From positions 1 to 38,334 of IMG/VR virus record IMGVR_UViG_3300012942_000085: DNA of 38,334 nt; one strand, written 5' to 3'. Positions 13,032 through 35,127 of the stretch are shown here, one piece after another. Both the position numbers and the translations under genes were made by a program. The stretch is from a virus (lineage: Duplodnaviria > Caudoviricetes). Each line of letters begins with the position of its first letter. Position 1 is the stretch's first letter. The notes beneath the pieces are model-generated. The model saw only the letters and a list, made by a program, of their open reading frames with translations, was not told the DNA's origin and ran no database searches.

Positions 13032-14504
13032 CTACCTGCCGCGTTCCTCTGAATACCGTTTCATCGCGTCAAGAAATGCCTTTTGGCCGGTGTACTTGGC
13101 GCGCAGATTCCGCATTTTTGGCACATCGACGGTGTCGCGCGCCACGAAATGGTGCTTCATGACGAATGCCGCTTTATTCCCTTGCCTAGCAACCCTTTGA
13201 TAGAACTGATCGTAGGTATCGTAGTTATCGTCTATATTAAAAAAAGCCACATTCTGCGCGTTGAACTTCTGCAGGTTCAACCCGTGGCCCATTGATGCGG
13301 GGTGGCCGAGCAGCACCGGGATGAGCCCCCTGTTCCACCGGTCGATGTAGTCCGCGGCCTGCCCGCGGGTGGTGTCGCCGTTGATGCACGGGACATCGTA
13401 CCCCAGCCCCTTGCGTATGGCCGCGACGTCGTGGTGGTAGCCGATGCCGACCAGGATCGGGTCGCCCTGCAGCTCGGACACCAGGTCGGCCAGCGCCTCC
13501 ACCTTCGCCGCGTGCAGCTCCTTGAACGGACGGTTGGTCGACCGGATCCGCTCCTCTGGGTCGGAGTCGAGGTAGACGGAGCCGTTGGCGATCTGGCAGC
13601 ACTTGGAGCGGGCCGACGCCGACGAGGTGAACGGCGCGGTGAACAGCGTGCTCATGAGGCTGCCCTCGATCGCGTCGTACTCCTTGCGCGCGGCCGGCGG
13701 CAGCTCCACCAGGTGGGTGCGCTCCATCTCCTTCGGCAGCTTGAGGTAGTCCCTGGCGTCGAGCCGCATCACCATCGGCGCCACGAGCGCGTCGATCCTC
13801 TCGGCCGACCCCGGCAGGATCTCCCACTCCCGCATCTGGAACCCCGTCGGGAAGAAGAACTGGTTCCTGTAGTGCGACAGGTACTCGCCGAGCGCCGCGC
13901 CGAGGTCCATGATGAACACCTGCCCGTGCAGGTCGAGGTAGTTGCGCGGGCGCGGGCTGCCGGTGAGGATGTGGCGGCGCCCGAACCCCCTCAGGTGCTT
14001 GCGCAGCGCGCGGAACCGCACGGTGACGGAGCTCTTCCAAAGGGACGACTCGTCGATAACGAGCATGTCGGCGCCGAGCGCCCTCACGCGCGCCTTGCTG
14101 GCCGTCAGCCATGGCACGCCCTCGGGGTTGATGACGCACACGTTGTGCTCCGGCCGCAGCGCGCGCAGCACGGCGTCCTTGCCCGGCCCGTGGAGCAGCG
14201 CCACCCGCATGTCCTTGAAGTCCGTCCAGTCGCACACCTCGGCCGGCCACACGTCGTAGCAGGCGCGCAGCGGCGCCACGACGAGCAGGCGCTTGACCAG
14301 CCGCTTCTTCAGCAGCACCTTGAGCGTCCCGAGCGTGACGCTCGTCTTGCCCATCCCCGGCGGCAGCAGCAGCCCCGACTGCGGGTTCTCCAGGACGAAG
14401 CGCATGGCGCGGCCCTGGTACTCGTGCGGCTTCCACGGCTTGGACGCGGCGCGCCACTCGGCCATCTTCGCCGCCAGGCCCTTCGGCACCAGATCATGAG
14501 GCAT
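13032..14504 (-). CDS. SNF2-family DNA helicase
   Basis: PHEYQ, GMGKT, IDESS, LTGSP, GHGLNLQ, Q…RV.RQG. Confidence 0.9.
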   Translation of the reverse strand: MPHDLVPKGLAAKMAEWRAASKPWKPHEYQGRAMRFVLENPQSGLLLPPGMGKTSVTLGTLKVLLKKRLVKRLLVVAPLRACYDVWPAEVCDWTDFKDMRVALLHGPGKDAVLRALRPEHNVCVINPEGVPWLTASKARVRALGADMLVIDESSLWKSSVTVRFRALRKHLRGFGRRHILTGSPRPRNYLDLHGQVFIMDLGAALGEYLSHYRNQFFFPTGFQMREWEILPGSAERIDALVAPMVMRLDARDYLKLPKEMERTHLVELPPAARKEYDAIEGSLMSTLFTAPFTSSASARSKCCQIANGSVYLDSDPEERIRSTNRPFKELHAAKVEALADLVSELQGDPILVGIGYHHDVAAIRKGLGYDVPCINGDTTRGQAADYIDRWNRGLIPVLLGHPASMGHGLNLQKFNAQNVAFFNIDDNYDTYDQFYQRVARQGNKAAFVMKHHFVARDTVDVPKMRNLRAKYTGQKAFLDAMKRYSEERGR

Positions 14505-14862
14505 CGTCCACCTTCTCCCACAGGGTCGCGTTGGCGGCGGTTACCTTGACGCCGTTGGACGGCGTGCAGTCTAGCTCCGCCGCGCCGCCTTCGACGGCGA
14601 CGACGGTCCTGACCGGCGCCACGACGAGCAGCCGCCGCGCCAGCCGCTTCTTCGACAGCACCTTGAACGCGCCGAGCGCGGTGCTCGTCTTGCCCATGCC
14701 GGGCGGCAGCAGCAGCCCCGATTGCGGGTTCTCCAGCATGAACCGCATGGCGCGGCCCTGGTAGTCGTGCGGGGTCCATGGCCGCGCCGCCGCGCGCCAC
14801 TCCGCCATCTTGGCGGCGAGCGCCTTCGGCACCAGGTCCGCCGCGTCGTTTTTTCTAGGCAT
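14494..14862 (-). CDS. Truncated paralogue of the helicase N-terminus fused to a 'VT…WEK' tail
   Basis: About 75 residues closely match the helicase N-terminus through LVVAP. Confidence 0.8.
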   Translation of the reverse strand: MPRKNDAADLVPKALAAKMAEWRAAARPWTPHDYQGRAMRFMLENPQSGLLLPPGMGKTSTALGAFKVLSKKRLARRLLVVAPVRTVVAVEGGAAELDCTPSNGVKVTAANATLWEKVDDAS

Positions 14863-15094
14863 CGGTCTTCTCCCACAAGCGCGCCGTCGAGGCCGTCACC
14901 GTCGCGGCCTCGCGCGCCTTCTCCCAGTTCCCGGCCGTCGCGGCCGTCACCGTCGCGGCCTCGCGGCGCCTGCCGACGGCGCGCTCCAGCCACAGGTCGC
15001 CGCTGGCCGTGTGGAACCCGGCCACCGTCCACGGCGTCCCGTCGCCCTTCTTGTACAACTCGTCGCCCACCTTGCAGTCAAGCAGCCCCGTCAC
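14855..15094 (-). CDS. Hypothetical protein with a 17-aa internal repeat (REAATVTA…WEK x2)
   Basis: 51-bp-period repeat at ~14867-14965. Confidence 0.65.
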   Translation of the reverse strand: MTGLLDCKVGDELYKKGDGTPWTVAGFHTASGDLWLERAVGRRREAATVTAATAGNWEKAREAATVTASTARLWEKTDA

Positions 15095-15390
15095 TTCCCC
15101 GTCCTCGCCCATCTCCCCATGTCCTCCATGAATTTCTCCCAAGTGTCCCACCTGCGCGCCTCGTAGCCGTCGGCCGCCAGCTTGGCCAGGTACCACGGCT
15201 GCGTCGCGGCGCGGGTCCCGCGCGACCCGGCGCCCTCGGCCTTGAACTCCCCGACCACCGGCCTGCCACCCGGGACGAAGAACACCCTGTCGGGTATCCC
15301 GTCGCATCCGCCCAGCTTGGCCGTGACGATGTCGTGGAAGCGCGCCCATTTGACGGCCCGCGCCTCCAGCGGCGACTCGCGCCTACCCAC
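15091..15390 (-). CDS. VRR-NUC domain nuclease
   Basis: E..LE…GIPDR…EFK…Q. Confidence 0.8.
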   Translation of the reverse strand: MGRRESPLEARAVKWARFHDIVTAKLGGCDGIPDRVFFVPGGRPVVGEFKAEGAGSRGTRAATQPWYLAKLAADGYEARRWDTWEKFMEDMGRWARTGK

Positions 15391-15946
15391 GCAGTTCTGC
15401 CTTGCGTATTGGTGCGAATTTTCCGTAGTACAATTTTTCAGCGGTGCGACGTGCTTTTACGGCCTTGTCAAAGTCGTTCTTGGCGAAATAGCCAAGACTA
15501 ATTCGCCTACCATCAACACGTATCAATACTTGCCATTTATTAAAGCGTGTTGCCCATGACACTCCAGTGACTCCACTTGTATTGTCCCTACTAGGCTTTG
15601 GTTTGTTGTGGCGGTTTTGGCTATGAGTGGCCGGCCGCAAATTTGTCCACTTGTTGTTCCAGCCATCGCCGTCTTTATGGTCTATTAGATTTAATGGCCA
15701 ACTGCCAGTCATGAAGAGGTGGGCCAATCTATGCGCGTAGTAAAGCCTGCCGCCAAAGCCTATTACAACAAGCTTATTTCCGTCTTTTCTTTTGGCGCAG
15801 TGCCCGGCTACGGCGCCTTTTTTGTTTCTACCGCCGTTTATACGCCATATGAAAAGGCCCTTGCGGGGCAGGTAGTTTAATGCCGCACGAAGCTTTTCTA
15901 ATATGATAGGCGTCGATTCCAAAGATTTTATTGATTTTCTTGGCAC
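15383..15946 (-). CDS. HNH homing endonuclease with AP2-like C-terminus
   Basis: YAHRLA…IDHKDGD..NN.W.NLR.AT..QN; NTSG.TGV; AT-rich. Confidence 0.9.
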   Translation of the reverse strand: MPRKSIKSLESTPIILEKLRAALNYLPRKGLFIWRINGGRNKKGAVAGHCAKRKDGNKLVVIGFGGRLYYAHRLAHLFMTGSWPLNLIDHKDGDGWNNKWTNLRPATHSQNRHNKPKPSRDNTSGVTGVSWATRFNKWQVLIRVDGRRISLGYFAKNDFDKAVKARRTAEKLYYGKFAPIRKAELRG

Positions 15947-16683
15947 GGTCCTCCATTGGACTTCCTAAAGCGGCACCATTTGCAGTGGAAGCCAGGTTTC
16001 GCGGGGTAGCGGGTGTCCGACATCATGGTCTCGATGCGCCTGGCCCACTCGCGCTTGAGCGGCTTGAGGTCCTTCATGGCGTACTCCTCCGTCGCCTCGA
16101 ACCCGGTGTCGGTGTAGACGTGCTCCGCCACCAGCCTGACGCCCTTGTCGCCGCCGGCCACGAGCCCCAGCTCGACCAGCTGCAGCCCGCCGAGCGCGTA
16201 CAGGCTCCGCTGCTGCTTATGGTCGTCGTACACCTTGCCCGTCTTCCAGTCTGTGATCTGCACCAGGCCCGGCGACTCCGCGCAGACGTCGACCTTGATG
16301 CGCAGCCACGCGTCCTGGCCGAACCAGGACGTCGGCAAGTACTGCCGCGTGAACGCCCACTCGAGTTCTGCCTTGGCCTTCAGCTTGCGGAAGGCGTCGA
16401 GCTTGCCCTTGACCGGTTTCAGCTCCGGGATGAGCGCCGCCGCGCGGCCGGCCCCGGCGATGTGCGCCTCGGCCGCCTTGTGCACCCTGGTGCCCTTCTC
16501 GAAGTGCGGGTTGGGCGGCTCCGGGATGCGGATCCGCTTCACCTTGTCGAAGCACACGGCCAGCGGGCACTTGACGTACGCGGTGTACACGCTGTAGCTC
16601 CACGACGCCAGGTTGGCCAGCTTGGGCGTCGGTTGGATCGGCCGTCTAGTCGGCGGCGTTGTCTTCTTGCTCGGTGTGGTCAT
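15928..16683 (-). CDS. PD-(D/E)XK exonuclease (Cas4/RecB-like)
   Basis: WSYS…CP, G.RVH, KVD…DWKTG, Q..LY, CKWC…C. Confidence 0.85.
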   Translation of the reverse strand: MTTPSKKTTPPTRRPIQPTPKLANLASWSYSVYTAYVKCPLAVCFDKVKRIRIPEPPNPHFEKGTRVHKAAEAHIAGAGRAAALIPELKPVKGKLDAFRKLKAKAELEWAFTRQYLPTSWFGQDAWLRIKVDVCAESPGLVQITDWKTGKVYDDHKQQRSLYALGGLQLVELGLVAGGDKGVRLVAEHVYTDTGFEATEEYAMKDLKPLKREWARRIETMMSDTRYPAKPGFHCKWCRFRKSNGGPCQENQ

Positions 16684-16852
16684 CGTGTCTTACGGCCTCT
16701 CTCGCTTCGTTGTGGCAGCCGCAGCCGCAGTTGATCTTTTGGCCGTGGTTCATGTTGACGAACCCCCGGCATCCGGCGTGCTTGCCCTCCCAGCATTTCC
16801 AGCTCTGGCCGCGCGGCTTCGGCCTCCTCGGCGCGTCAGGCACCTTGCGCAT
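16646..16852 (-). CDS. Small Cys/His protein
   Basis: C..G.H..C…CGCGCH. Confidence 0.55.
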   Translation of the reverse strand: MRKVPDAPRRPKPRGQSWKCWEGKHAGCRGFVNMNHGQKINCGCGCHNEAREAVRHDDHTEQEDNAAD

Positions 16853-17573
16853 CGGCCCCCTCCGACGGCAGGTGGAAAATGTGCTGCGGGTCCTGCTGCG
16901 GGTCCACCTCGTGGAGCAGCGCCGTCAGCGCCTCCGCCACCGCGGCCTCCCGGTACGTGGCGCCGTCGAGCTCCACCAGGTCGATGTCCTTGACGGAGCC
17001 CACCAGCCTTGCGACGACGGCACCCATCGAGTCCAACGGGATGCGGTAGCCGCGCTGGTAGAACTTCAGCACGCGCAGCAGCGACCCGCCGGCGTCCTCG
17101 TTGCGCTTGGGGCTGGTGTACACCAGGCGCCTCGCGGCCAGGTCGGCGTAGAAGTCGGGGTGCGCCGTCGACATCCACTCCGCCCGGTGCGTCGCGGCGT
17201 CGCGGCCCGATCCGCACCACACCACCGACTTGGCCACGGTGAAGTCGAAGCTCTCCGCCAGCTCCTCCGCCGTCGAGTAGGCCCAGCGGTGGATCACCTG
17301 GATGGGGAGCGCCGCGTCCGGCCTGCGCACGGTGTGCGCGTTGGCGCTGGTCCAAACCGTCCCCTTGTCGCCGGCCAGCAGCCTGGCGTACAGCCCGGCG
17401 GTGTCGGCGTCCGGCGCGAACAAGTCGACGTCTTGTGGCTCCTCGTTCGCCACGCACGCCCTGATGAACCCGCCGGCCAGCATCGCGCGCTTGTCCGATT
17501 CCATCAGTTGCACGACGCACTTCGGCGCCCTGCGCAGCACCCAATAAACGTCCCTCTTGCTCAGCTCGCTCAT
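16836..17573 (-). CDS. Pol-beta-superfamily nucleotidyltransferase (CCA/polyA-polymerase head-like)
   Basis: LAGGFIR…DVDLF…IQVI…FDFT. Confidence 0.75.
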   Translation of the reverse strand: MSELSKRDVYWVLRRAPKCVVQLMESDKRAMLAGGFIRACVANEEPQDVDLFAPDADTAGLYARLLAGDKGTVWTSANAHTVRRPDAALPIQVIHRWAYSTAEELAESFDFTVAKSVVWCGSGRDAATHRAEWMSTAHPDFYADLAARRLVYTSPKRNEDAGGSLLRVLKFYQRGYRIPLDSMGAVVARLVGSVKDIDLVELDGATYREAAVAEALTALLHEVDPQQDPQHIFHLPSEGADAQGA

Positions 17574-18100
17574 TTATTTCCTTTCTTCTTTTCAGTTTTC
17601 AGTTTGGTTTTAAGGGCATTGGCGGCTTTCTTTGCCGCGTATTGTTTCTGGGCATTAGCTTTATGGCCCTTGACTTTTGGCTTGGTCTTATAGGCCACCA
17701 GGTAAGCCGCCAATGCCGACAGTATTTTGGGTGAATCGGCCGCGCCGCCGAGGGCTATATTGCAGCCATGGCAGAGCCATCCACGGAACAGGCCACTCTT
17801 ATGGCAATGGTCGTAATGCAGTGAACGGCCCTCATTTGGCTTGCGTTTGCAAACTTCGCAACGACTAGGACGCTTGCGATCCGCCAAGGATTCGTGAACA
17901 CCATCCCGCCATTTCTTATGGTCTACTCTACGTTTTTCCTTGTCTGAAGCAAGGTACAACTTGGCCATTTGTATTTTCCGTTTTTCAGAGTTGGCGCGCG
18001 ACCATTTATTGGCTATGTCGCGCGATGCTTGGCGGTTAGAGGCTACCCAGGCATTGTGGCTGTCGCGTGATTTCTGCTCTTTTGGTGTGAGAGTTTTCAT
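17570..18100 (-). CDS. Endonuclease VII-family homing endonuclease
   Basis: CEVC…DHCH..G.FRGWLCHGCN; AT-rich. Confidence 0.85.
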   Translation of the reverse strand: MKTLTPKEQKSRDSHNAWVASNRQASRDIANKWSRANSEKRKIQMAKLYLASDKEKRRVDHKKWRDGVHESLADRKRPSRCEVCKRKPNEGRSLHYDHCHKSGLFRGWLCHGCNIALGGAADSPKILSALAAYLVAYKTKPKVKGHKANAQKQYAAKKAANALKTKLKTEKKKGNK

Positions 18101-20013
18101 ACTGTGAACTTTTCCAATTGCCCCCATGATGGTCCGATCTCACTGTCAGACTTCATAACGAGCGGTTTGATATCCACCGAGGCGATGCACTCTTTTAGCA
18201 CCTTCATCTCTTGTCTGGCGCCTTTGTCGGACATGGGCAGGTTGACATCTACCTCATCGTATACCGTGGTAATCATGTTCTCGGTCCGCTTAGGATGGTC
18301 GTTGTACCGACACAATACTTCCTTCGTAAAATCAGCTCCGCTCCCCTGGCAAAGATAGTTTATGAGCCGGTATGTGAAGGTCATATTGCGCCCGAACTTC
18401 TCCATATACCGCGGGGGTTCCACGTAGTACAGGCGGCCTCCCAACGTCCGCATGGGTTCACCGTTATTTGACAGCTCCTTCAGCGCATTGTCGAGCTCCT
18501 TGATGGACGGCAGGGCGGTGTTGAGGCCGCGCTGGATGATTTGTGCCACGTTCTTCTCATCCTCCGCGAGGTTGAGCAACTGCATCAGGCCGGTCAGGCC
18601 TTGGCCATAGAGCCGCGCGAACACGACGCCCTTGGCGCTGTCTCGGTCGAATGAGTCCCGCAGGCCGGCCTCCCGCAATTGACGCTCGACCTCTGCCCGC
18701 ACTAGTTCATGCATGTCGAATTTGGGATCATCAAGGAATCCCTGCATCACGACGGAGTCTTCAAAGTATGCGAACAGCATGACTTCCTGCTGTGTTAAGT
18801 CGGCGCGACCCCACCTTTTGCCAGTCTCCGGCAAGGCGTAGGTGCGCACGAATGGCAGCTCCGGAACCTTCAAAAAAGAAGGATGCTTGTAGCCAAGCGC
18901 CGCCGCTTTCTTGAACTTCTTTGGAAGGTTCAATAAGTTGGGCTTGGTGCAGATAATCCGACCTGACCGCGCGCCGTTCATATCGGCGCCTCCTCCGCCC
19001 GCCTTCACTTGGCGCCATACCGGAAAGATGTGGTCACCCTCTCCCGCCAGCTCCAACCAAGGCTCCATAAATGTCTCGGTGCACGTACCCAGCTGAGCCT
19101 TGTAGGTCATTACTTGGTATACTTGCTTGTCGCTGAAAAGATCGATGGTAAGCTGCTTCTTGCCGACGCCGCGCTGACCCTTGGCGGTCAGTTTGAAGTT
19201 TGAGACGATGCCTTTGTCGAACAAGGCATCCCCCAATTGCTTGGGACTGTTCATGTTGATGTCGCCAAGCCTCCTCCGCAGCCAGGCATCGGCCCGCTCC
19301 ATGGCGGCTTTGAATACGGGAATGTCTTTCTCTAATCTGTCGACATCTACCCGCATGCCGCGCCGAGAGTTGGCCAAGAGTACCGGCATGAGCCGCTGCT
19401 CGCGCTGGTAGGCCTCCTCCATGCCAACCTCCACGACGCGCGGCCACAGCCAGTTGAACAGTCCAATGGTGCGCGTCAGGTCGCCCTTGTGGTAGGGGCG
19501 CACGATCTGGTACGGCGCCTTCCAGATGTAGGCACTGGCCGTCGACGGCTTGCGCTTTGCCTCAGGCACGTTGGCCACAATCCACTCATGCATCTTGTCT
19601 TGTTCTTCAGGCGGCGTTCCGAGCAGTTCTTCGGCAGCCGACTTCAATGCAAGTGATTGCGAGTGCGGATCATTGAGAAACAAGAGAAACATGGTATCAT
19701 GGGTGTCGCGCGGGTCGTCCTTCAAGGGAATTTCCCAGTGCGTCTCGGCGACATCGGTATCAAACATAGCATTGTGGAACAAAAGACCGTACCTGCTGTC
19801 GCGCGCCTTTTTATACTCGGCGCGTGCCTCCTTCTCTGTGCAGTTGTTGCCGAATGCTTTGGTGCCGTCCCCATGGCCCCATGCGAGCAGCTGGTAGTCC
19901 TTGCGGTCCGGCCACTTGAGGGCCAGGCTGACCGGTTTCGGCGGGAACTTTGGCCGCGCTTCTATGCCGTGCGTCTCAAAGTCGATCGTGATGACAGGCG
20001 GTGCTTTCTTCAA
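18097..20013 (-). CDS. polA: Family A DNA polymerase with 3'-5' exonuclease
   Basis: DFET, HNAMFD, YHKGD; motif A DLTQQE, motif B R..AK…F..LYG, motif C VYDE; TTG start with GGAG RBS. Confidence 0.92.
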   Translation of the reverse strand: MKKAPPVITIDFETHGIEARPKFPPKPVSLALKWPDRKDYQLLAWGHGDGTKAFGNNCTEKEARAEYKKARDSRYGLLFHNAMFDTDVAETHWEIPLKDDPRDTHDTMFLLFLNDPHSQSLALKSAAEELLGTPPEEQDKMHEWIVANVPEAKRKPSTASAYIWKAPYQIVRPYHKGDLTRTIGLFNWLWPRVVEVGMEEAYQREQRLMPVLLANSRRGMRVDVDRLEKDIPVFKAAMERADAWLRRRLGDINMNSPKQLGDALFDKGIVSNFKLTAKGQRGVGKKQLTIDLFSDKQVYQVMTYKAQLGTCTETFMEPWLELAGEGDHIFPVWRQVKAGGGGADMNGARSGRIICTKPNLLNLPKKFKKAAALGYKHPSFLKVPELPFVRTYALPETGKRWGRADLTQQEVMLFAYFEDSVVMQGFLDDPKFDMHELVRAEVERQLREAGLRDSFDRDSAKGVVFARLYGQGLTGLMQLLNLAEDEKNVAQIIQRGLNTALPSIKELDNALKELSNNGEPMRTLGGRLYYVEPPRYMEKFGRNMTFTYRLINYLCQGSGADFTKEVLCRYNDHPKRTENMITTVYDEVDVNLPMSDKGARQEMKVLKECIASVDIKPLVMKSDSEIGPSWGQLEKFTV

Positions 20014-20117
20014 CGTGGTCTCCGCGTGAGAACTGTGAATGGGAGGAGGATGACCGCCGCGGCGCCAAGACAGCACCACATGAACACTTTTGGTAAAGCT
20101 AGTATGAATCTCGCCAC
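20010..20117 (-). CDS. 35-aa hydrophobic peptide coupled to the polymerase start
   Basis: GGAG-GTG start; TTGA overlap. Confidence 0.4.
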   Translation of the reverse strand: MARFILALPKVFMWCCLGAAAVILLPFTVLTRRPR

Positions 20118-20214
20118 GTCGCGCTCCAAATTACGGCATGCGCTCGCGCACGGCATGCCAGCGTGCTGAAGCCGCGGTCCCAGCTTCTATCCGGGCCGCG
20201 GTGCGATTCAAGGT

Positions 20215-20247
20215 AAAAAGTAGGGCCGGTGAGACTTCGCCGGCCCT
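20215..20247 (-). terminator. Intrinsic terminator
   Basis: agggccgg…ccggccct stem followed by ACTTTTT on the minus strand. Confidence 0.75.
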
Positions 20248-20259
20248 TTGCAGAAAGGC

Positions 20260-21087
20260 CTACCGCTTGCCGGCCGCCTTCTTGCCGGCGAACCGTTGCG
20301 ACCCTCCGGCCTTCGCCTTGCTGGCCGGCGCCTTGGCGCGCTCGATCGGCGCCGAGAACGGCTTTTGCAGGAAATCCTGTACCTTGAGGAACCGCTTCTC
20401 GAGCGCCGTCAGCACGTCATCATCCTCGATGAGCGACACCATGCGGAACTCGAGCCTGATCTGCGTCTTGTCGTCGTGGTGGCTCTGCACCTCGGTCACG
20501 ACGGCCCAGGGCGGGCGCCCGTGCTCCTCGAGCAGCGTGTCGACGTACTCGGAGTAATACTTGCGGTTGGTGGGGCTGACGCTCGCGGTGGCCAGCTCCG
20601 CCGCGGCCACCGACTCGGCGTCGGATGCGTCCTCGCCGGTGAGCAGCGCCAGCCGGATGGTGTTGCCGCACGCCTTGCCGCGCCCGGTATTGGCCGTGCC
20701 GAACTGGTTCTTCTCGCAGTCGGCGCACTTCGCCGACTGCTTGTCGGAGGCCTGCGCGTGCGGCGCCATGTCGGGGTCGTCGCTGATGACGGCGAGCGCG
20801 TAGCAGTCCGGCGGCTGCCGGTCGTCCGGGTTGTACTGGGTCTTGTACCACTTGTTCAGCGCGCAGCTGCCGACCACCACGCACTCCATCTTGCCGCTCT
20901 TGATGACGCTGCCGGCCACGGTGATGGTGCCGTGGCCGAAGCTCACGCTCACGCCGCCGCCGGTGCCGACGTTGGCCACCTGCTCCTTCGACTCCTTCGC
21001 GTACTTCGAGAACTTCTCGTCCCACCGCACGATCGCGGTGCCCGCCTTGCCCGCCGACTTCGCGGGCGCCTTCTTCGCCGTTGCCAT
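20260..21087 (-). CDS. Conserved phage replication protein, putative ssDNA-binding/annealing
   Basis: PDCY…CADC..NQFG…GKAC; position next to the polymerase; followed by its own terminator. Confidence 0.55.
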   Translation of the reverse strand: MATAKKAPAKSAGKAGTAIVRWDEKFSKYAKESKEQVANVGTGGGVSVSFGHGTITVAGSVIKSGKMECVVVGSCALNKWYKTQYNPDDRQPPDCYALAVISDDPDMAPHAQASDKQSAKCADCEKNQFGTANTGRGKACGNTIRLALLTGEDASDAESVAAAELATASVSPTNRKYYSEYVDTLLEEHGRPPWAVVTEVQSHHDDKTQIRLEFRMVSLIEDDDVLTALEKRFLKVQDFLQKPFSAPIERAKAPASKAKAGGSQRFAGKKAAGKR

Positions 21088-21161
21088 TTTATTCGTCTCC
21101 TCGCGGTTTCAAACTTCGTTGCGGTCATGGACCCGGGACGACTCCCCTGGCCCGCCTAGAT

Positions 21162-21416
21162 TCAATCCCCTCCGGCCGCCAGCCTGCGCGCGGCATAGGC
21201 CTTCCGGCTGTCCGGCCCCTCCATGGCGGCCATGCGCTCCAGCAGCAGGCGCCTCCCCCCCGCCGTGGCGGCCGCGACCAGCTCGCAGTCGGCGACCTTG
21301 GCCGAGCTTTCAGGCCAGCCGCAGCAGACGAGGTGCTCGCCGCCGGCCGCCACGTACGCCACCAGCCACGTCTCGCCCGTGGGCCTGTGCAGGACGGCGT
21401 CCCCGGTGTCGATCAC
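21162..21416 (-). CDS. Hypothetical protein
   Basis: GD.VLHRPTGETW…CGWP; GTGA-coupled. Confidence 0.65.
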   Translation of the reverse strand: MIDTGDAVLHRPTGETWLVAYVAAGGEHLVCCGWPESSAKVADCELVAAATAGGRRLLLERMAAMEGPDSRKAYAARRLAAGGD

Positions 21417-26732: not shown

Positions 26733-26794
26733 GGTTCCCTCCTCTCGCTTTATTATACCGCAGGGCGCCGCACTGGTCTGAATCCGGCTGCCGC

Positions 26795-26947: not shown

Positions 26948-27252
26948 ACGCGCCCCTCCCCCCCGCACTCCTCGCACCTCCGTACCCTGCCCTTGAACAT
27001 GCGCGTGCCGCGCACCCCGCTGCCTTCGCACCCGCCGCAAAGGCCGGAAAGCGCCGCCTGTCTCTTCGCCCACTCGTCGCGCTTCTCCGCCGTCTTGACG
27101 GCGGTGTACGCCATGGTGTAGACGTGCCAGCCGTCGCCGACGGCCCCGCCGACCTTGTCGGGATGGATCTTTTTCGCCACGTCGTGGTACGCCTTGCGTA
27201 TGACCTCGTCCGCGTCCGTCGGCTTCACGAGGAGGACCGCGTAGGGTGTCAT
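26944..27252 (-). CDS. Mini DnaJ: J-domain plus two CxxCxGxG repeats
   Basis: PY.VL…IRKAY…HPDK; CGGCEGSG, CEECGGEG. Confidence 0.85.
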   Translation of the reverse strand: MTPYAVLLVKPTDADEVIRKAYHDVAKKIHPDKVGGAVGDGWHVYTMAYTAVKTAEKRDEWAKRQAALSGLCGGCEGSGVRGTRMFKGRVRRCEECGGEGRV

Positions 27253-27371
27253 TTGAGCTCGCCTCCGCAGTCCTGGCAGAACGCCCTGAACCATTCACTA
27301 AGCCACATGCGCCTGTCCCAGAGCATGCCGCACTTCACGCACCGCCTCGTCTCTCCGCAGCAATTCTTCAT
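27249..27371 (-). CDS. 40-aa zinc-ribbon peptide
   Basis: CVKCG…CQDCG; ATGA-coupled. Confidence 0.5.
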   Translation of the reverse strand: MKNCCGETRRCVKCGMLWDRRMWLSEWFRAFCQDCGGELK

Positions 27372-27585
27372 CCCACCCTCCTAAACATGCCCCGCACGAA
27401 CGCCCTGTGCTCCCGCCTTGCGGGCGTGTCGTACCGATCCTCCGGCCTGTCGCCTTCCGCGCCATCCAGGGCCTCGTCCATCCGCCTGCGCCACGCGGCC
27501 ACCGCGTCGGCCGACCGCACCGTCTCGTTGTCGAACCTGCGCGCCTCCAGCAGCAGGCCGATGAGCGCCTCTTTCCTCGCGCCCC

Positions 27586-27972
27586 TCACCGAGCCTCCAA
27601 GTGCATTTTCGTCATCGCGCAAAGCGCCGCCATGCGGTCGACGGCGGCGGCGCGGTCACATCCAGTGCGCTCCATAATGATACCGAGCAATGTCATCACC
27701 AGTACTGGAACATCCGCCGCCGTGTCCACGGCCTTCCTTATGGCCTCATGCGCCTCCATGCCGCATTCTTGCTTGATGACGCGCTCGTAAACATTCATGT
27801 GGTGCTGCGCGGTGGTGTGCCCGCCCTCGCAGCCCACCGGATTCGCCGCCGTCTTCTTGAACTTGCAGTCTTCCATTATAAATTCCTCCAAACCAATGCA
27901 CGTTTCGATTGCTACATCTGGCGAGAACTTCTTTTGCGCGGCCATCGACGCGCCCTCGTAGTCGTATTCCAC
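27586..27972 (-). CDS. Hypothetical protein
   Basis: ORF with AAGGAGG RBS. Confidence 0.6.
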   Translation of the reverse strand: MEYDYEGASMAAQKKFSPDVAIETCIGLEEFIMEDCKFKKTAANPVGCEGGHTTAQHHMNVYERVIKQECGMEAHEAIRKAVDTAADVPVLVMTLLGIIMERTGCDRAAAVDRMAALCAMTKMHLEAR

Positions 27973-28210
27973 TCAGGAGACCTCCTTGGCTCATCTCAAG
28001 GAAGGCGCGTCGATGGACACGCAACCTGCAGCCCATCGTTGGAGCTAGAAAAGCCTACTTGCAGTTTCCAAGTACTGCGTAGTCTCTGGATGTGTTTCAA
28101 TGTGCTCGATGAACGCTTCCAAGTCACGTAGCTCACTACGCATCTTGTCGCGTCGTTCTACAGCGCGCTGCTTGATGGACTTCCTTGGTTTCGACTCTGT
28201 TTCGCACGAA

Positions 28211-28414
28211 TCATCGCACATTTCTTGAATCCCTCCCCCACGACTTCCATACGGCCGGCATGCGGGTGATGCCCCATCCGCGCTGGTAGGCGCCGCCGAG
28301 CGCCTCCAACGCCCTCACGACCTTGGCCGGCAGCTTGGCGTTCCACCTGCTGACCATGTGCTCGCGCGTTCCGAACTCCTTCTCTAATACATCCTCCGCC
28401 TCTTTCTTGTTCAT
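28211..28414 (-). CDS. Hypothetical protein
   Basis: AAGGAGG RBS. Confidence 0.65.
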   Translation of the reverse strand: MNKKEAEDVLEKEFGTREHMVSRWNAKLPAKVVRALEALGGAYQRGWGITRMPAVWKSWGRDSRNVR

Positions 28415-28462
28415 CTTGTCCTCCTTGATTCGGCCGGTTGGCCGTGGGCCGTCCCGGCGCGG

Positions 28463-28759
28463 TCAAACGCCGACGGCCGCGTCGCCCGCCGCCGCCTCGC
28501 ACGCGGGTTCTGGGTTCATCTTCAGCACGCAGCCAGTGTCCAGCCAGCGGTGGAACGCCGTGCCGACGCACTTGTGGGAGCAGTGGTCCGTGCGGAGCAA
28601 TATCCTGCGCTCCGACTTGGCCTGGCGCGTGTGGACGTCGGCCGCCTCCGCCGTCAGGAACTGCGGGGCCTTCGGGTCGCCAATGACGGCCCACCAATTG
28701 TTGACCGCGCCGTGCAGCGCTCCGCACTCGTCGCATTGCCGCACCGTTATCTCGCTCAT
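28463..28759 (-). CDS. Zinc-finger hypothetical protein
   Basis: CDECG…HCS..C; GAGGAGG RBS. Confidence 0.7.
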   Translation of the reverse strand: MSEITVRQCDECGALHGAVNNWWAVIGDPKAPQFLTAEAADVHTRQAKSERRILLRTDHCSHKCVGTAFHRWLDTGCVLKMNPEPACEAAAGDAAVGV

Positions 28760-28861
28760 AAAGCTACCTCCTCACCAGCCGCCATGAAATCGCCGTGGTG
28801 GTCGCGCCGAGAATAAACGACGCGACCGCCACGGCGACCAGCTCAACCTTGTCGACGCATA

Positions 28862-29269
28862 TCACAGCGCCTCGACCAGGGCGGCGATCTCCTCGCGGGA
28901 CTTGCCGCGCAGCTCTTCCTTGTCCTTGTCCGCGAGGATGGCGAGCAGTTCCTGCTTCTTCTCGCGGTTGGCGGCGCGCGTCTTCGCCTCGTCGCGCTCG
29001 GCCAGCTTGACGTCGATGACGTGCTTCACGACGTCGAACGCGAGCTCCAATTTGGCGTTGGACGCGGTGGTCTTGACGACGAAGCTGACCTCCTCTGAGT
29101 CCTTCACCTGCCGGTGAAGCTCTCGCGCCAAACTGTCAAGGTCGAAGCCGTCGTTGGAGGTAAGCGGCATGTGCCAGATATCCTCCACGCTGAGCAGGCC
29201 GCGCGTGGTTTCGAAACGGAGGCGGGCGCGCAGCGCGCGCTCGAAGATGTTGACGTTGTTTTCTGCCAT
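28862..29269 (-). CDS. Conserved phage coiled-coil protein
   Basis: FE.A.R.RLRF.T.RG.LSVED.W…LD..A…F.VVK.VI; own -10 at 29331-29336. Confidence 0.75.
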   Translation of the reverse strand: MAENNVNIFERALRARLRFETTRGLLSVEDIWHMPLTSNDGFDLDSLARELHRQVKDSEEVSFVVKTTASNAKLELAFDVVKHVIDVKLAERDEAKTRAANREKKQELLAILADKDKEELRGKSREEIAALVEAL

Positions 29270-29379
29270 GGTGGTTCTCCCTTTATTTGATGGTTCTGGA
29301 TTTACTGCCGCGATTTGTTCGCTTGTAAGTATTATACGGCCCCACTGCAATTCCAGGCCAGATTCGGTTTCAGTGCCTT

Positions 29380-29550
29380 TCACAGCGTGATCGACGATCC
29401 ACGCATTATGGTGCGCCTGCCGCAAGCGGGGCAAACATGCTCCCAGACTTCTCCTGGCGGTATGTACAACATGTTTGGCGGCTCATGATCGCGGTCCACG
29501 CATGGCGTCAGCGTCCAAGGTATGTCTGTGTCGATTCTTCTTACTGGCAT
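29380..29550 (-). CDS. Small zinc-binding protein (C…H.PP..LY…H.CPACG)
   Basis: AAAGGAG RBS. Confidence 0.65.
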   Translation of the reverse strand: MPVRRIDTDIPWTLTPCVDRDHEPPNMLYIPPGEVWEHVCPACGRRTIMRGSSITL

Positions 29551-29561
29551 GATCGCTCCTT

Positions 29562-30224
29562 TCAACGTACTGGGTATTTCTTGCCGCCGTGCACCGGGCA
29601 CTTTGCCCTCTGCTCCAGCAGCTTGGTGGTCATGCGCACGTTGCCAGGCCTTCCGGCCCAGCATGCGCACTTCTTGCCGTACGGCGCGGCGAAGACCGCC
29701 GACATCGTGTTCGACCGCTCGGCCTTCTCCGACAGGTCGATGCCGCGTGCCTCGGCCACCTTCACCATGACGTGGTAGACTGGACGGTCGAGGCATTGCT
29801 CCCGCGTCAGTTCATAAAACGGCACGTCTGGATCAACGGTTCGTTGCGCGCTGTTGCCGCACTTGGCCCTCGCTTCCGCGTTCCGCTCCAGCATGCGTAT
29901 GGCGCAATAGAGGTGGTGGTCGTCCATGTCCTTCACGAGTATGAGCGTGCCGTCGCGTTGTTTCCAGACGATGTACGGCACCTCCACAGGCTCGGATTCA
30001 GAAAGCGTCTGCCTCTCCTCGAACCGCACCGCGACGATCTTGTCGCTCCAGCCCTTGGCCACGGCCTCCTCCAGCAGCCCCAAAAACGTGCTCTTGCCGC
30101 AGCCTTGCGGGCCGGAAACGGTTACAGTCATCGTGCATTTCTTCGACTCCATCCTCTTGGCCAGCATTTCACGAGCCTCGCGATTGCTCAGCGGTTCTCC
30201 GTTGCGGTCGTCTGTGCGTTCCAT
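29562..30224 (-). CDS. Mosaic protein with an isolated N-terminal Walker A
   Basis: VSGPQGCGKST followed by unrelated small domains. Confidence 0.7.
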   Translation of the reverse strand: MERTDDRNGEPLSNREAREMLAKRMESKKCTMTVTVSGPQGCGKSTFLGLLEEAVAKGWSDKIVAVRFEERQTLSESEPVEVPYIVWKQRDGTLILVKDMDDHHLYCAIRMLERNAEARAKCGNSAQRTVDPDVPFYELTREQCLDRPVYHVMVKVAEARGIDLSEKAERSNTMSAVFAAPYGKKCACWAGRPGNVRMTTKLLEQRAKCPVHGGKKYPVR

Positions 30225-30321
30225 TTCGTTCTCCTTTCACTTGAGCAACCATCCGAGGGCCACGCACCGACAGCGCTAACTTACCGAATTTTTCGATGAC
30301 TACAGACCTTTCTTTCTTCTT

Positions 30322-30846
30322 TTATTTGGAAGGCGCATACGCGCCAAAATAGCGCACTTCAGCAGCGCGTCTAACTTCAACCGCCGTCTTAAAATCTTCT
30401 TTCCTAAACCTACCAAGATGTATGATACGCCCATTTACAGTTATTCTAGCCCACCATTTGTTGTACTTGGAGTCCCACCCTACTCCAGTGATACCGCTTG
30501 TATTATCAGAGCGCCGCCGGTGCTTATTGCAGATATTTTGACTGCGAGTGGCCATGCGAAGATTTTTCCACTTGTTGTTCCAACCGTCACCATCTTTATG
30601 ATCTACGTCTAATTTCACTGAGGGCCACTTCCCCGTCATAAAGACAAAAGCAAGCCTGTGAGCTAGGTAACGCTGTCCATTGATACCGATGACAATTCTT
30701 TTCTTGCCTTTCTTATCCAAACTTTTTGTGCCGGCTGTATCGCCTTTACGCACTCTTTTAAGTGCATTAGTGCGCCATACAAAAACACCTTTATGAGACT
30801 GGTATGTCAATATGCCGCGCAAATAGGCGATATTCGGCCGTTTCAA
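30322..30846 (-). CDS. HNH homing endonuclease with AP2-like C-terminus
   Basis: Paralogue of 15383-15946 (DHKDGDGWNNKW.NLR shared); AT-rich. Confidence 0.9.
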   Translation of the reverse strand: MKRPNIAYLRGILTYQSHKGVFVWRTNALKRVRKGDTAGTKSLDKKGKKRIVIGINGQRYLAHRLAFVFMTGKWPSVKLDVDHKDGDGWNNKWKNLRMATRSQNICNKHRRRSDNTSGITGVGWDSKYNKWWARITVNGRIIHLGRFRKEDFKTAVEVRRAAEVRYFGAYAPSK

Positions 30847-33302
30847 AACTTGACTTTCAGCACGCGCTCGAACGCGCCCTTGACGCGCACGGTGACGGAG
30901 TCGCGCTTGGTGGAGGAGAAGCCCAGGCCCGACAGCTGCCGCTCCGATGCCTCCGTCTTCATCTTGGCCCCGACCATCTCCATGGTCTTGCGGTGGGGCT
31001 CCAGCTCCGCACGCAGGAACTCGTTGTAGAAGGGCCGAGCGGTGCCGTCGTTGACGCAGCCTTCCAGCATGAAGAACCAGTGCTTGTTGCCGACTCCCGC
31101 AAAGCCGCGAAATCCTACTTCCAAGTCATCTTGAGTGATGTCCCAGTAATTGGGCGACAGCATGGCCATGCTTGCCTTGTGAAACCGCTGCGTCTCGAGG
31201 CCCCAGACCGTCTTCACGGACTGCATCGAAGGCAGCGACTCGACAATCTCGAATCCGGCGGCCCGCGTGTACTTGATCTTGGCCACCATGACGGTATCCC
31301 CAGTGCGTAGCGCCTTCTCGTATGCGAAACTATGCGTAGCGCCGTCGAACTCCACCTGTGCCTCGAAGCCCTTGCCGTCCGAGCGCCGCGAGTAGTTGTT
31401 CACGGACAGCTCGTACACGCCCTCCACCATCTTGGCCTTGTCCGCGTAGAAGATGTTCTCCGCCGGTTCGGACTTCATGCCATCGCAGCCGTTGGCGTCC
31501 AGGTCCAGCATGCCGCCGTTGGCCGACAGGCGGCGCACGTTGCCGTAATAGATGTGGTTACCTTGCGAAGAAAGTCGTCCACCAAGTGCCTTAGTCGCCC
31601 CCGGCTCCTGCATGTGGAAATCCAGGTCGTCCTCATAGTCCCACGCCAGGCGGCAGCAGAGATCGCCCGTTACCGAGCCGCCCGCCCGCTTCACGCGCTC
31701 CTTGATGGCGTCGGCGAAGTCGCCTGCGTAGCTCCACGAGAAGGCGTTGGGCCACTTGAACATGCCCTTCGCGCCCGGATCGACGGGCGCCACCAGCGAG
31801 ACGAGGCTGCCGACGTGCCGGTTCTCGAACAGAACCTCCAGCGACGTGGCCTTCGGCAGCACGTCCTTGATAAATTTCTCGACGGAGACCTCCTCCACCT
31901 TGTCGTACGAGCGCGGCTTCTCTGGCAGCGACTCGGCCAGTGCGGTCAGCGCTTGCTCGGCGCTCAGCGTCTTGCCTCCGCCGCGCGAACCAGTATGCAA
32001 CTTCGCCGAGCGGTCGGCGAACAGCACGTTGTTGACCGTGACGTCCTCCGGCACGGCGTAGCGCCGCTCCAGCGCGGACGTGTACCCCAGCTCGTTGATG
32101 GCCTTGCGCGCCTTCTCCACCATGGCCTTCGTCACCAGCGCCGTGGGCCGCTTGTAGTTGGACGGCGCCACCATCGCCTCGAACTTTTTGACGGCGTCCT
32201 CCATCTCCAGCGGTCCGCTGCCCTCGTGCGCGTGCCGGAAAGCTCGCTGCGGGCAGATGGTCGAGACGCATTCACCGGCCTCGTAGGTTCTCGACGGGGA
32301 ACCGCTCAGATCTTGCAGCAGCGTGCCGATGGCCGTGTTGCGGATGCGCGAGACGGACGGCGGAAGTGTCTGGGACGCTTGCCAGCAAAATACGTCGCGC
32401 TGCGCGGCCCACATCCTGGCTACTTCAGATACAGCCGGATCAGCGGTAGGCACGTCCAGTTTCGCGTATTCCTTCTTCAGCTTGCGGAACTCCGACACGG
32501 CGAACTTGTTCTCCTCGCCCTTGTACAGCGAGTTCTGCGCGATGAGCTCCAGCACCGTGTCGACGGCGTCGAGCGTGAGCTCCTCCAGGCCGCGCTTGAG
32601 CACGTCGAACGCGGCGCGGGCGTCCGACTGCCTCGGCCCCACCTGCTCTTTGATAACGACGGCCTCGTTCGGCAGCCGCAGGTGGAAGTGCTCCCATGTG
32701 TTGACCGCGCCCGGCTCCGGTTTGCCATCCGCGCCGAGCAACTGCTGAAACGACTTCTCCGTCCCCACCGTCTTCTCGGTATGCAGGAAGATGTTGTCGA
32801 TCGCGGCGGTCCGAACGAACTCCGCCATCGCCTCGCCCACGTCGTCGTAGAAGGTGTCCGTAGCCCTGAAATCCCAGATACTCTCCAATTTGCCGTCCAC
32901 GACGACCACGACGCCGCCCATGGTGCGCACGAAGTGGCGGCAGCAGGAGCAGTCATGGTCGGTGCGCTCCTTGTAGAGCGGGTTGGTGCCCTCGGGGAAC
33001 GACGCCAGGTACTTCTCCCACAAACGGTCGCCCGTGGCCGCCGCGCGCTGCTCGGGGGAGCCGAGAAGCTCGCCCTGCGGCCCACTCAGGTCCACGCGGT
33101 AAAGCTGGTGGCCCTTCATCAGCTCGAACTGCTTGGCCACGGCGTGCTTGACGACGCTGAACGGCGCGTCCTTCTCCACGTTCTCGAAGCTGGGCTTGCC
33201 CATGGTGGCCCTCCCGGTGCGCGCGCCTTCCGGCGTCTTGAGGTTCGACTTGCGCGAAGACAAACGTCCCGTGGCCGTTCCTACCTGCTTGAATTCTGTC
33301 AT
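30843..33302 (-). CDS. Large conserved phage protein with a YfaP/DUF2135-like domain; frame stays open upstream to 33602
   Basis: HDCSCCR.F; LAW…DLD.H..EP…LDLD.N…ENI…G.Y…VNNY; -10 at 33331-33336 and AAAGGGG RBS before ATG 33302. Confidence 0.75.
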   Translation of the reverse strand: MTEFKQVGTATGRLSSRKSNLKTPEGARTGRATMGKPSFENVEKDAPFSVVKHAVAKQFELMKGHQLYRVDLSGPQGELLGSPEQRAAATGDRLWEKYLASFPEGTNPLYKERTDHDCSCCRHFVRTMGGVVVVVDGKLESIWDFRATDTFYDDVGEAMAEFVRTAAIDNIFLHTEKTVGTEKSFQQLLGADGKPEPGAVNTWEHFHLRLPNEAVVIKEQVGPRQSDARAAFDVLKRGLEELTLDAVDTVLELIAQNSLYKGEENKFAVSEFRKLKKEYAKLDVPTADPAVSEVARMWAAQRDVFCWQASQTLPPSVSRIRNTAIGTLLQDLSGSPSRTYEAGECVSTICPQRAFRHAHEGSGPLEMEDAVKKFEAMVAPSNYKRPTALVTKAMVEKARKAINELGYTSALERRYAVPEDVTVNNVLFADRSAKLHTGSRGGGKTLSAEQALTALAESLPEKPRSYDKVEEVSVEKFIKDVLPKATSLEVLFENRHVGSLVSLVAPVDPGAKGMFKWPNAFSWSYAGDFADAIKERVKRAGGSVTGDLCCRLAWDYEDDLDFHMQEPGATKALGGRLSSQGNHIYYGNVRRLSANGGMLDLDANGCDGMKSEPAENIFYADKAKMVEGVYELSVNNYSRRSDGKGFEAQVEFDGATHSFAYEKALRTGDTVMVAKIKYTRAAGFEIVESLPSMQSVKTVWGLETQRFHKASMAMLSPNYWDITQDDLEVGFRGFAGVGNKHWFFMLEGCVNDGTARPFYNEFLRAELEPHRKTMEMVGAKMKTEASERQLSGLGFSSTKRDSVTVRVKGAFERVLKVKF

Positions 33303-33562
33303 TGTGTGGTCCCCTTTCAGGACTGGTTCAATTATACCGCCGCGGCGGCCCTTCTTCCCAAGCACGCTTCTGAATTCAGGTTTATCAGGCGCCTCGCGCC
33401 GCATTACCCATGCGAGCGCCAATTCCATGGCTTCTTCCTTCTTCTCTAGCGGAAATACGACGCTGGTCTGCGTCAGTGAGTGTGGGTGCAATACAATCTC
33501 TATGCTTGTTTCGCTCTTTCGTCGTACGAGCGCCGATGGCTCGCGGTCAGGTGCGTCTAGTT

Positions 33563-33934
33563 TCATAAAGTTCCTTTCTGTTTCGGCTGGCGCACCATCC
33601 ATGTTCGTTTCTTTGCGAATCCGTTCCTACCGTACCATTCGCGCAGCTGCGCCGTGGAAAGCGTTTGGTGCTCGTTGGCCTTGGCGAACAGGTAGACCAC
33701 GAAGCCGTGCTTGTCCGCCAGCCCGCACAGCCACCGCAACGCCCTGGAAGCGCTTCCGCGGCCGGTCCTACTCCGAAGCGTGTGGATTCCGGCCAGATAA
33801 ATCTCATCCGCCAAATCCACAAGAAGCACCGTGTCACCGACCCACCCTACCATACTGCCTGGAGCGTGCGGCGTGCCCTTCGGATACGGCGAACGACGCG
33901 ACCCTGCCATAAAATCTTCAATAAATGTCTTCAT
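33563..33934 (-). CDS. GNAT-like acetyltransferase
   Basis: RTGRGSAS motif A; L..WY.R.GF. Confidence 0.65.
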   Translation of the reverse strand: MKTFIEDFMAGSRRSPYPKGTPHAPGSMVGWVGDTVLLVDLADEIYLAGIHTLRSRTGRGSASRALRWLCGLADKHGFVVYLFAKANEHQTLSTAQLREWYGRNGFAKKRTWMVRQPKQKGTL

Positions 33935-34085
33935 CCGCCCTTTCTTCCTCACCGAACCACACCCATACCAAGAACCACAATACCCATGCCGCAAGAAGCC
34001 AAATCGGGACATGCGCCGCCAGCCACACCAACGTGGCCAGCTTCAAAGTGGCCTTGGACAAGTCGAACCAGTTCTTGCGCGTCAT
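33918..34085 (-). CDS. Small membrane protein
   Basis: Trp-rich hydrophobic stretch. Confidence 0.55.
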   Translation of the reverse strand: MTRKNWFDLSKATLKLATLVWLAAHVPIWLLAAWVLWFLVWVWFGEEERADEDIY

Positions 34086-34210
34086 TTCTTGCCTCCCGCG
34101 CAGAACAGGCACTTCTTGAGCACGACCGCGCCGTTGTGCGCCACGCTTATCTTCCCGCTTCCGCCGCACACGACGCACGCCGCGCTCAGCACCCCTCGAA
34201 CCTTTGCCAT
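34082..34210 (-). CDS. CxxCxGxG zinc-finger peptide
   Basis: CVVCGGSG…CLFC. Confidence 0.5.
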   Translation of the reverse strand: MAKVRGVLSAACVVCGGSGKISVAHNGAVVLKKCLFCAGGKK

Positions 34211-34328
34211 AACCTGTCGGCTCCCTCCATCGCCTCTTCCAATGTTTCTGCCCCGGCCAGCCCGACTCCGCTCGGCGTGGTCACCAAGAATTTGCCGCGC
34301 CAAAGTTCACGCAGCCATGGGTCGAGCC

Positions 34329-34499
34329 TCATGCCGCCATCCACAACAGCAGCACCGGCCACAGCACGGCACTTCCGGCCAGGAACAGGTAGGCCTGCCA
34401 ATCCATCCACCATTTCTCCTCCGTTCCCCTGCTGGTGTGCAGCAGGAAGCAAAGACCGATCAACAGTCCAATCAGCAGGTAGGGAGCGATTAGCGTCAT
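34329..34499 (-). CDS. Small membrane protein
   Basis: Two hydrophobic helices; YL.IG…LWP. Confidence 0.55.
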   Translation of the reverse strand: MTLIAPYLLIGLLIGLCFLLHTSRGTEEKWWMDWQAYLFLAGSAVLWPVLLLWMAA

Positions 34500-34909
34500 C
34501 GCGGCAGCTCTTGAACGCTGACGGGCGACTTGTCGTGCCCAAACGTTGTGTATCCAATGCTGACGTCGCTCCCCGCGATGCGCTTCAGCATATCTTGGTC
34601 GGCTCGTACGATTATCTCGGCGGAGAAGCCGTCGTGGTTGACGTACGCCTCGCCAACCTGCTCGCCCTTTTGGTTCAGAAACGGCACTCTTTTCACGGCT
34701 TCCTCCTTTAGGAACCATTCTTTGTCGACTGCGTCCTTCAATGCCGATTGGATAAACCGCGCCGTATCCGCCGCGTCTTCCGCCAACTGAAAGTCGCCTT
34801 CTCCCAAACTTCTTGTATGCATTGCGTGGCCGCACCACCTACCGCAAATGGTAGTCTCTTCTGGGTCGATGGCAAGGCATGTATTGTCGTGCCCCTTAAA
34901 CTCGTGCAT
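34496..34909 (-). CDS. Hypothetical protein; C-terminus resembles a DUF2213 prohead-protease fragment
   Basis: VG…DG..AEI.V..D.D.LKRI.G..VSIGY. Confidence 0.55.
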   Translation of the reverse strand: MHEFKGHDNTCLAIDPEETTICGRWCGHAMHTRSLGEGDFQLAEDAADTARFIQSALKDAVDKEWFLKEEAVKRVPFLNQKGEQVGEAYVNHDGFSAEIIVRADQDMLKRIAGSDVSIGYTTFGHDKSPVSVQELPR

Positions 34910-34917
34910 CTTCGCTC

Positions 34918-35127
34918 CTATCTGTGCATCAACGCGTTCGCGAAGCTCGGCCTGCGGCGCGGCTTCTTCGAAAGCATGGCCACGATCCTGCCGCGCATCA
35001 GCCAGCGGTACGTGTCGTACGGCAGCCACAAGCGATCAACCTCAGTTATTGGCGCAGCGTAGACCTCCCTAAGCAGTGCCGAAAAGTCCGCCATGATGTC
35101 TTGCGGGGTCTTGTCGTCCCAGCTCAA
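34918..35127 (-). CDS. 69-aa protein resembling a DUF2184-type major capsid protein segment
   Basis: W..KTP..I..D…L…D.L.LP…Y..L; TTG start overlapping the upstream TGA. Confidence 0.55.
   Translation of the reverse strand: MSWDDKTPQDIMADFSALLREVYAAPITEVDRLWLPYDTYRWLMRGRIVAMLSKKPRRRPSFANALMHR

Follow-up and report, generated by a model that had tools for sequence, protein, structure and literature searches.

Overview of the phage record

The viral record IMGVR_UViG_3300012942_000085, analysed here as a whole (the window, 38,334 bases), corresponds to the arm of a high-GC phage genome that encodes accessory and replication functions. Its genes lie on the minus strand and include a polymerase, a ligase, a helicase, an exonuclease and ThyX; the head genes of this phage fall outside the record. 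An earlier note had flagged six stretches of this DNA as isolated fragments of core phage proteins, and had proposed that they form a decoy system rather than debris. For all six we confirmed the coordinates, the open frames on the minus strand and the overlaps or purine-rich leaders. Two of them, a gene of 55 amino acids (aa) excerpted from a family-A DNA polymerase (the mini-polymerase) and one of 69 aa excerpted from a major capsid protein (the mini-capsid), have established parentage, are under purifying selection and occur in stand-alone form in several phages that also carry the intact parent gene (Table 1).

Relatives were identified through the ligase, which led to G001 (a complete 100 kb genome whose ligase is 72% identical to that of the record), and then through the G001 capsid, which gave 30 loci. 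Three relatives are complete (G001, G009 and G019). Atlas searches returned no family name. Many accessory open reading frames (ORFs) in the record are chimeras of exchangeable modules.

Table 1. Positions of the mini-genes, the other flagged fragments and associated genes in the window
Feature	Position	Strand	Remarks
Mini-polymerase gene, 55 aa	23631..23798	-	overlaps both neighbours
Mini-capsid gene, 69 aa	34918..35127	-	TTG start overlapping the upstream stop
PolA TGR-motif tag	33231..33299	-	residues 2-24 match PF00476, E=2.2e-4
820-aa protein of no assigned function (phrog_1735, PF26675)	30843..33302	-	carries the tag
Recombination scar	14494..14862	-	helicase N-terminus (about 86 codons) plus tail of an unrelated small gene
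137-aa chimeric ORF	34496..34909	-	residues 69-121 (34547-34705) form a module conserved in G001
220-aa chimeric ORF	29562..30224	-	Walker A at 30090-30113, in the N-terminal part
Intact family-A DNA polymerase, the phage's own	18097..20079	-	motifs clearly unlike those of the mini-polymerase
Intact SNF2-type helicase	13032..14504	-	profile matches
Endonuclease VII-family gene	17570..18127	-	directly 3' of the polymerase; candidate free-standing homing endonuclease
HNH endonuclease	30322..30846	-	directly 3' of the TGR-tagged protein
Second HNH endonuclease	15383-15946

A stand-alone excerpt of a family-A polymerase

In the mini-polymerase a PNLQNIP-type PolA motif is joined by its own linker to a motif A segment. 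It is homologous to PF00476 (E=1.2e-4; 21.6 bits, below the curated cut-off of 34.3), of which it covers about positions 126-168, or ~43 of 381. At 55 aa it does not comprise whole palm, fingers and thumb domains bearing motifs A, B and C. It is not one half of a split polymerase, because an intact polymerase is encoded elsewhere in the record and the neighbours of the mini-polymerase are unrelated genes. A custom PolA-motif profile, run on 21,508 frames of 15 records with reversed frames as control, matched full polymerases and the flagged PolA pieces only, and gave zero matches in the reversed frames.

G001 encodes a 59-aa syntenic orthologue between the same neighbours, 71% identical to the mini-polymerase and likewise matching PF00476 under the curated cut-off (E=4.8e-5). 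The two genes differ at 12, 9 and 29 first, second and third codon positions, respectively, giving a ratio of non-synonymous to synonymous differences (pN/pS) of 0.30 (p=3e-7; pS 0.66, pN 0.20), compared with 0.26 for the ligase, 0.27 for the helicase and 0.18-0.48 for three neighbouring genes. A third copy (P0002) is without the catalytic Asp, indicating that catalysis is not what is being kept. A contig from another study spans the gene without gaps and with 39 other letters, and a metagenome scan returned this record itself and two weak matches of 21 residues.

Stand-alone excerpts of the same polymerase region were found beyond these orthologues. One, in locus L087, is 45 aa long and has a ribosome site and a stop-start overlap; it was the sole stand-alone mini-ORF among 120 matches (77 distinct) in a scan for a start-proximal TGR pattern, the rest comprising full-length or split polymerases plus a single match out of frame. 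Another is gp221 of phage phiCbK, an 81-aa protein (phrog_12116) annotated in GenBank as 'putative Pol I DNA polymerase, palm domain' and unnamed in the main text of PMC3556154. It is matched by 26 Caulobacter phage records (duplicates counted) and has a pN/pS of 0.38 against CcrBL10. Like the mini-polymerase, gp221 is conserved (across genera) and present in phages that also carry a full polymerase, whereas its boundaries and linker are different, suggesting that it is likely a separate capture. The polymerase segment thus recurs in at least three separate lineages.

Other candidates were set aside. A scan for ORFs that begin with the PNLQNIP motif produced 13 matches, of which only the G001 copy was of this kind. 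A tblastn search of cultured phages with the mini-polymerase returned full polymerases, unannotated records and one chance match (phage Trina); two viral-contig matches and three further cultured matches were also full polymerases. We did not count 22 short PolA-like proteins, which mostly continue into normal Pol I sequence or are partial. Many phage polymerase genes (L022, L041, L021 and others) end 26-38 codons past the TGR motif and represent split polymerases, and in L234 an intein-like end lies just ahead of this motif.

Two observations would suit a mini-polymerase that acts on host Pol I or its partners, as a competitor or scaffold, rather than on immunity: the excerpt belongs to the cellular Pol I type, and in phiCbK a GcrA-like host-takeover gene is coupled to gp221. 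This proposal is silent on the capsid excerpt described below, and we consider it very unlikely.

A stand-alone excerpt of the major capsid protein

Residues ~2-46 of the mini-capsid (~45 residues) match residues 175-228 of the DUF2184 major capsid protein of this clade, and residues ~47-69 form a conserved basic tail that has no capsid counterpart. Searched as a single sequence the protein gave weak profile matches (PF09950, E=6e-4; phrog_264, E=7e-5). The relationship is clearer at the family level: seven of ten members match PF09950 at E<=0.1, and the family profile aligned with the G001 capsid at an hhalign probability of 96.5% (E=7.6e-10). Compared with DUF2184/PF09950 capsids, which have the HK97 fold (e.g. 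Pam3 gp7, PDB 8hdt), the mini-capsid is one seventh as long, lacks the N-arm, E-loop, P-domain and most of the A-domain, and has acquired the new basic tail. It is neither a full HK97 fold nor, lying among accessory or replication genes, part of a head module.

Searching 1.84 billion representatives with phmmer identified 11 proteins at E<=0.001. Nine are 67-103 aa long and align from their first residues through the tail at 35-60% identity; the remaining two are unrelated long proteins. Several of the homologues come from contigs of 50-100 kb, ruling out that they are stubs at contig ends. In G005 the mini-capsid lies 3' of the exonuclease and is coupled to it, and in the complete G019 it lies in the accessory region and has a longer N-terminus. 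These are different genomic positions, and both records carry an intact capsid gene. No copy was found in the cultured phages searched, and short-pattern scans for further mini-capsid loci found none.

The pN/pS of the mini-capsid was 0.50 against G005 (p=1e-4) and that of G005 against G019 was 0.71 (p=0.007), values that lean upward as silent sites are near saturation. Parent-derived signature residues persist across family members that are less than 50% identical; W3, I11, L19 and P36 of the mini-capsid are residues taken over from the parent. A structure model of the mini-capsid contains three helices (predicted TM-score 0.31), and the model of the clade capsid is poor (predicted local distance difference test score 33); fold searches with either gave no match. 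The clade-capsid segment containing the match aligns with residues 136-271 of Pam3 gp7 (8hdt_A; E=0.009). From HK97 topology, and given the poor capsid model, we tentatively place the excerpt at the opening of the A-domain, where it would correspond to the first helix-strand-helix.

Two side observations concern the mini-capsid of G019. Its N-terminal extension (G019:26003-26329, minus strand) contains the same 7-residue peptide as the 220-aa chimeric ORF of the window (about 29680-29700, minus strand), and a loose pattern of this peptide had just these two matches in the 21,508 frames. A phage-borne Flp/Fap pilin (L196:5361-5558, minus strand, equivalent to G019:24361-24558; PF04964, E=1.2e-7) is encoded 1.5 kb from the same mini-capsid and may affect host range or exclusion.

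Alternative functions of the mini-genes

One alternative is that captured folding pieces have been domesticated for jobs unrelated to their parents, with the basic tail or the helical linker doing the work. In the mini-capsid the tail residues W42, R45, R59 and P60 rank with the best-conserved columns of the family, in the mini-polymerase the linker is conserved together with the motifs, and the abundance of modular chimeras among the accessory ORFs here is also consistent with such recycling. Standing against it are the retention of parent-derived signature residues in diverged mini-capsids and the recurrence of one and the same polymerase segment in separate lineages. We regard this explanation as possible but doubtful; a function unrelated to the parent is nearly as likely as the mimicry of sensor targets discussed below.

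The earlier note had also raised dominant-negative inhibition of competing phages. In this reading the mini-capsid would poison the capsid assembly of co-infecting related phages and the mini-polymerase would be a replisome competitor. The capsid excerpt is of the clade's own capsid type, the patchy presence of the mini-genes among relatives fits competition, and inhibition of assembly by small mobile-element proteins is known from the Tai tail-assembly inhibitors (PMC11364771). The latter, small accessory proteins as well, disturb the way other phages assemble their virions; according to the sections of that article consulted they are encoded by prophages or satellites and act on tails, and no sequence relation to the mini-genes was found. 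However, the capsids of carriers and non-carriers are near-identical (91-93% among the closest), and self-poisoning would be expected. Moreover, no immunity partner is evident and no prophage relative was found among the genome contigs searched, making this reading unlikely.

The other flagged fragments

The proposal that the six stretches are fragments of core proteins held, by profile matches, for the two mini-genes, the first TGR peptide and the helicase piece at 14494-14862. The two PolA TGR peptides had been placed at 33174-33302. The first matches PF00476, the second lies outside the Pfam match, and the tag constitutes the N-terminus of the 820-aa phrog_1735/PF26675 protein. Among the best 120 of 5,911 PF26675 homologues, seven scored 10.7-39.4 bits for an N-terminal PolA motif, compared with 5.9 bits for the eighth and 1.4 for the best reversed control. 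The tag is almost intact in P0005 and worn to varying degrees in other tagged homologues, and its pN/pS against G001 is 0.42 over 26 codons. In a tree, six of the tagged proteins are scattered through a weakly resolved group of 32 and the seventh falls elsewhere, a pattern compatible both with one gain followed by losses and with several gains.

The 820-aa protein also has a variable loop (about 31938-32009, minus strand) with a short P-loop-like insert. Loop inserts in PF26675 homologues are short and exchangeable (P0009, P0018, P0022, P0005, P0020 and P0021); a GxxxxGKT peptide occurs in 4 of the best 120 homologues, and a peptide containing APYG or MPYG in 4 of the 23 top homologue rows. 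Reading these inserts by eye as a terminase Walker A or polymerase motif B found no profile support; our custom motif-B profile scored poorly even against genuine polymerases.

The helicase piece at 14494-14862 is a recent recombination scar. It matches a helicase N-terminus (phrog_62, E=1e-11), and its first part is identical at 190 of 225 bases (84%) to the 5' end of the helicase next to it, while its last ~36 residues match a small gene located ahead of the helicase in G001 (E=5e-5), where there is a single helicase start. Contigs of three other studies join position 14270 to 14614, skipping 343 bases (14271-14613) and sharing 18 letters; a run that is possibly from the source sample bridges 14271-14613 unchanged. 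One of these contigs has 4 differences from the window in 248 letters upstream and 31 in 352 downstream, a contrast that fits a crossover between two related genomes. A short tandem repeat lies nearby at 14861-14910, within the small gene before the helicase, and 48 of its bases are missing in contigs of two other studies.

The segment that had been likened to a prohead protease belongs to the 137-aa chimeric ORF. Its conserved module is 43% identical to its G001 counterpart over 53 aa, has other flanks there and shows a pN/pS of 0.51. No Pfam or PHROG protease profile matched it, DUF2213 (PF09979) included, and an alignment with the clade DUF2213 protease, in the expected register, reached an hhalign E=0.13 (probability 0.45%). 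The protease parentage is thus unconfirmed.

The Walker A described as lone is a real motif with P-loop matches; it is not alone, being situated in the N-terminal part of the 220-aa ORF. These matches are generic (best Pfam E about 4e-3), the piece has no match in the other records compared, and the G001 orthologue is without the N-terminal part that bears the motif; for this piece the claim that it is not debris fails.

Taken together, stand-alone conservation under selection at the protein level holds for two of the six pieces, the mini-polymerase and the mini-capsid, and for these the verdict that they are not debris stands. The remaining four need no decoy function, as they comprise one scar, two peptides riding on larger proteins and one unconfirmed module. 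Nor do the six pieces make up a system, since relatives do not carry them together.

Origin of the fragments

By alignment and the Klenow numbering offset, the mini-polymerase starts at a proline that we take to be Pol I position 674. Phage polymerase genes are known to be interrupted in this region, with introns of SPO1, SP82, Bastille and Pf-WMP3 reported at position 674 and that of phiL7 at 676 (PMC3428280). The start of the excerpt at an intron site points to endonuclease-aided capture as its likely origin, and not to the reason for its retention.

This raises the question of whether all the pieces are by-products of homing-endonuclease cutting or illegitimate recombination, being neutral or serving only as DNA decoy sites. 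Consistent with this, most tags end at about the same intron position, where the L234 intein also ends, the tags have decayed to differing degrees and the helicase piece is demonstrably a scar. The record furthermore encodes five HNH or Endonuclease VII genes (2799-3098, 12313-13023, 15383-15946, 17570-18127 and 30322-30846), each of which sits in a low-GC patch or adjoins a replication gene. However, L087, gp221, P0005 and P0120 span the intron site rather than end there. More importantly, silent sites of the two mini-genes are almost saturated, yet the proteins are preserved (pS 0.66-0.70 against pN 0.20-0.35), the opposite of what a DNA target or neutral decay would produce. With selection acting on protein rather than DNA, neither mini-gene can be debris or a DNA decoy; for these two the by-product explanation is refuted. 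It accounts for origin and for the helicase piece, not for maintenance, and as an explanation of all the pieces it is distinctly improbable.

Discussion

What might the selected function be? Both parent proteins are documented targets of bacterial sensors. In the portions of the sources available, Avs7, Avs8 and Avs10 are described as binding to the A-domain of capsids and Avs19 as a sensor of family-A polymerases (PMC13581612), capsid proteins also trigger CapRel, and aRES binds T7 polymerase (PMC13728456). It is for this reason that, among the functions considered, we tentatively prefer a role for the two mini-genes as molecular mimics that would occupy host sensors of core proteins without triggering them. 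The mini-genes would arise by illegitimate recombination of core genes, a process evidenced by the helicase scar in the same genome and suggested by the start of the polymerase excerpt at a conserved intron/endonuclease site. Judging from their coupled starts and their position in the accessory region or replication module, they would be expressed early, and the presumed partner of each mini-protein would be a host sensor.

Several observations weigh against mimicry. Each mini-gene is patchy, being present in one of the three complete relatives: the mini-polymerase was not found in G009 and G019, nor the mini-capsid in G001 and G009. The motifs of the mini-polymerase are closer to the cellular Pol I type than to the phage's own polymerase, with which it does not align at the homologous place, and a sensor must not respond to the host's own Pol I. 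The pN/pS of the mini-capsid against G019 is 0.82, which is not significant (p=0.18). Its tail is conserved as much as the capsid part (majority fraction 0.58 versus 0.50), was not found on other proteins of the 15 records, small clade proteins included, and may itself carry the function. Avs sensors are described as reading whole core folds over large interfaces, and also as being activated by minimal parts such as a tape-measure segment or the polymerase core (PMC13581612, in the part seen); an excerpt of 45-55 residues could therefore be ignored or could trigger. For CapRel, in the portion of PMC9712102 consulted, most contacts are with the P-domain and with different loops of the A-domain. 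Finally, the apparent preference for conserved motifs may be an ascertainment effect, as only such motifs are recognisable.

The nearest precedent is in a eukaryotic giant virus. Bodo saltans virus (2018; PMC5871332) has a genome rich in homing endonucleases and, like the phage studied here, has accessory genes that contain pieces of core viral enzymes, DNA polymerase among them. In the account consulted these excerpts are fused to ankyrin repeats and a decoy role was proposed, also as a hypothesis, whereas the excerpts reported here are stand-alone or short-tailed and include one from a capsid. In the literature searched, which comprised few subscription papers and no supplements, we came across no account of phage mini-genes that are excerpts of core proteins and are kept by selection; the parts consulted of the anti-defence literature, PMC11702601 and PMC11364771 describe none. 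Likewise, among known anti-defence proteins (EVADES) no inhibitor made of a trigger fragment was found in the portion of the literature looked at.

Sensors of conserved phage folds are thought to be hard to escape by mutation. If mimicry is correct, a fragment-based pseudo-ligand would be a counter-measure of general use, and its recognition in sequence would help to predict anti-defence genes. With or without a decoy function, some genes annotated as 'truncated polymerase' or 'capsid fragment' (e.g. phrog_12116) are selected mini-genes, and phiCbK gp221 provides a cultured test case for the polymerase-excerpt family. More speculatively, lytic phages might keep a mobile repertoire of mini-genes and tags drawn from core proteins detected by bacterial pattern-recognition receptors (capsid A-domain, family-A polymerase and baseplate wedge) and expressed early as receptor-jamming pseudo-ligands, of which the capsid and polymerase excerpts would be two families.

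Two minor features of the relatives involve structural proteins. Across the clade (G001 and relatives), the head and tail modules contain repeats of one domain of ~65 residues, borne by several of the head-tail and baseplate proteins. In G001 itself a stand-alone frame of 167 aa outside the tail module (19239-19742, plus strand; locus L011) matches profile positions 49-139 of 548 of a baseplate wedge subunit (phrog_6, E=1.3e-6), and constitutes an additional excerpt of a structural protein.

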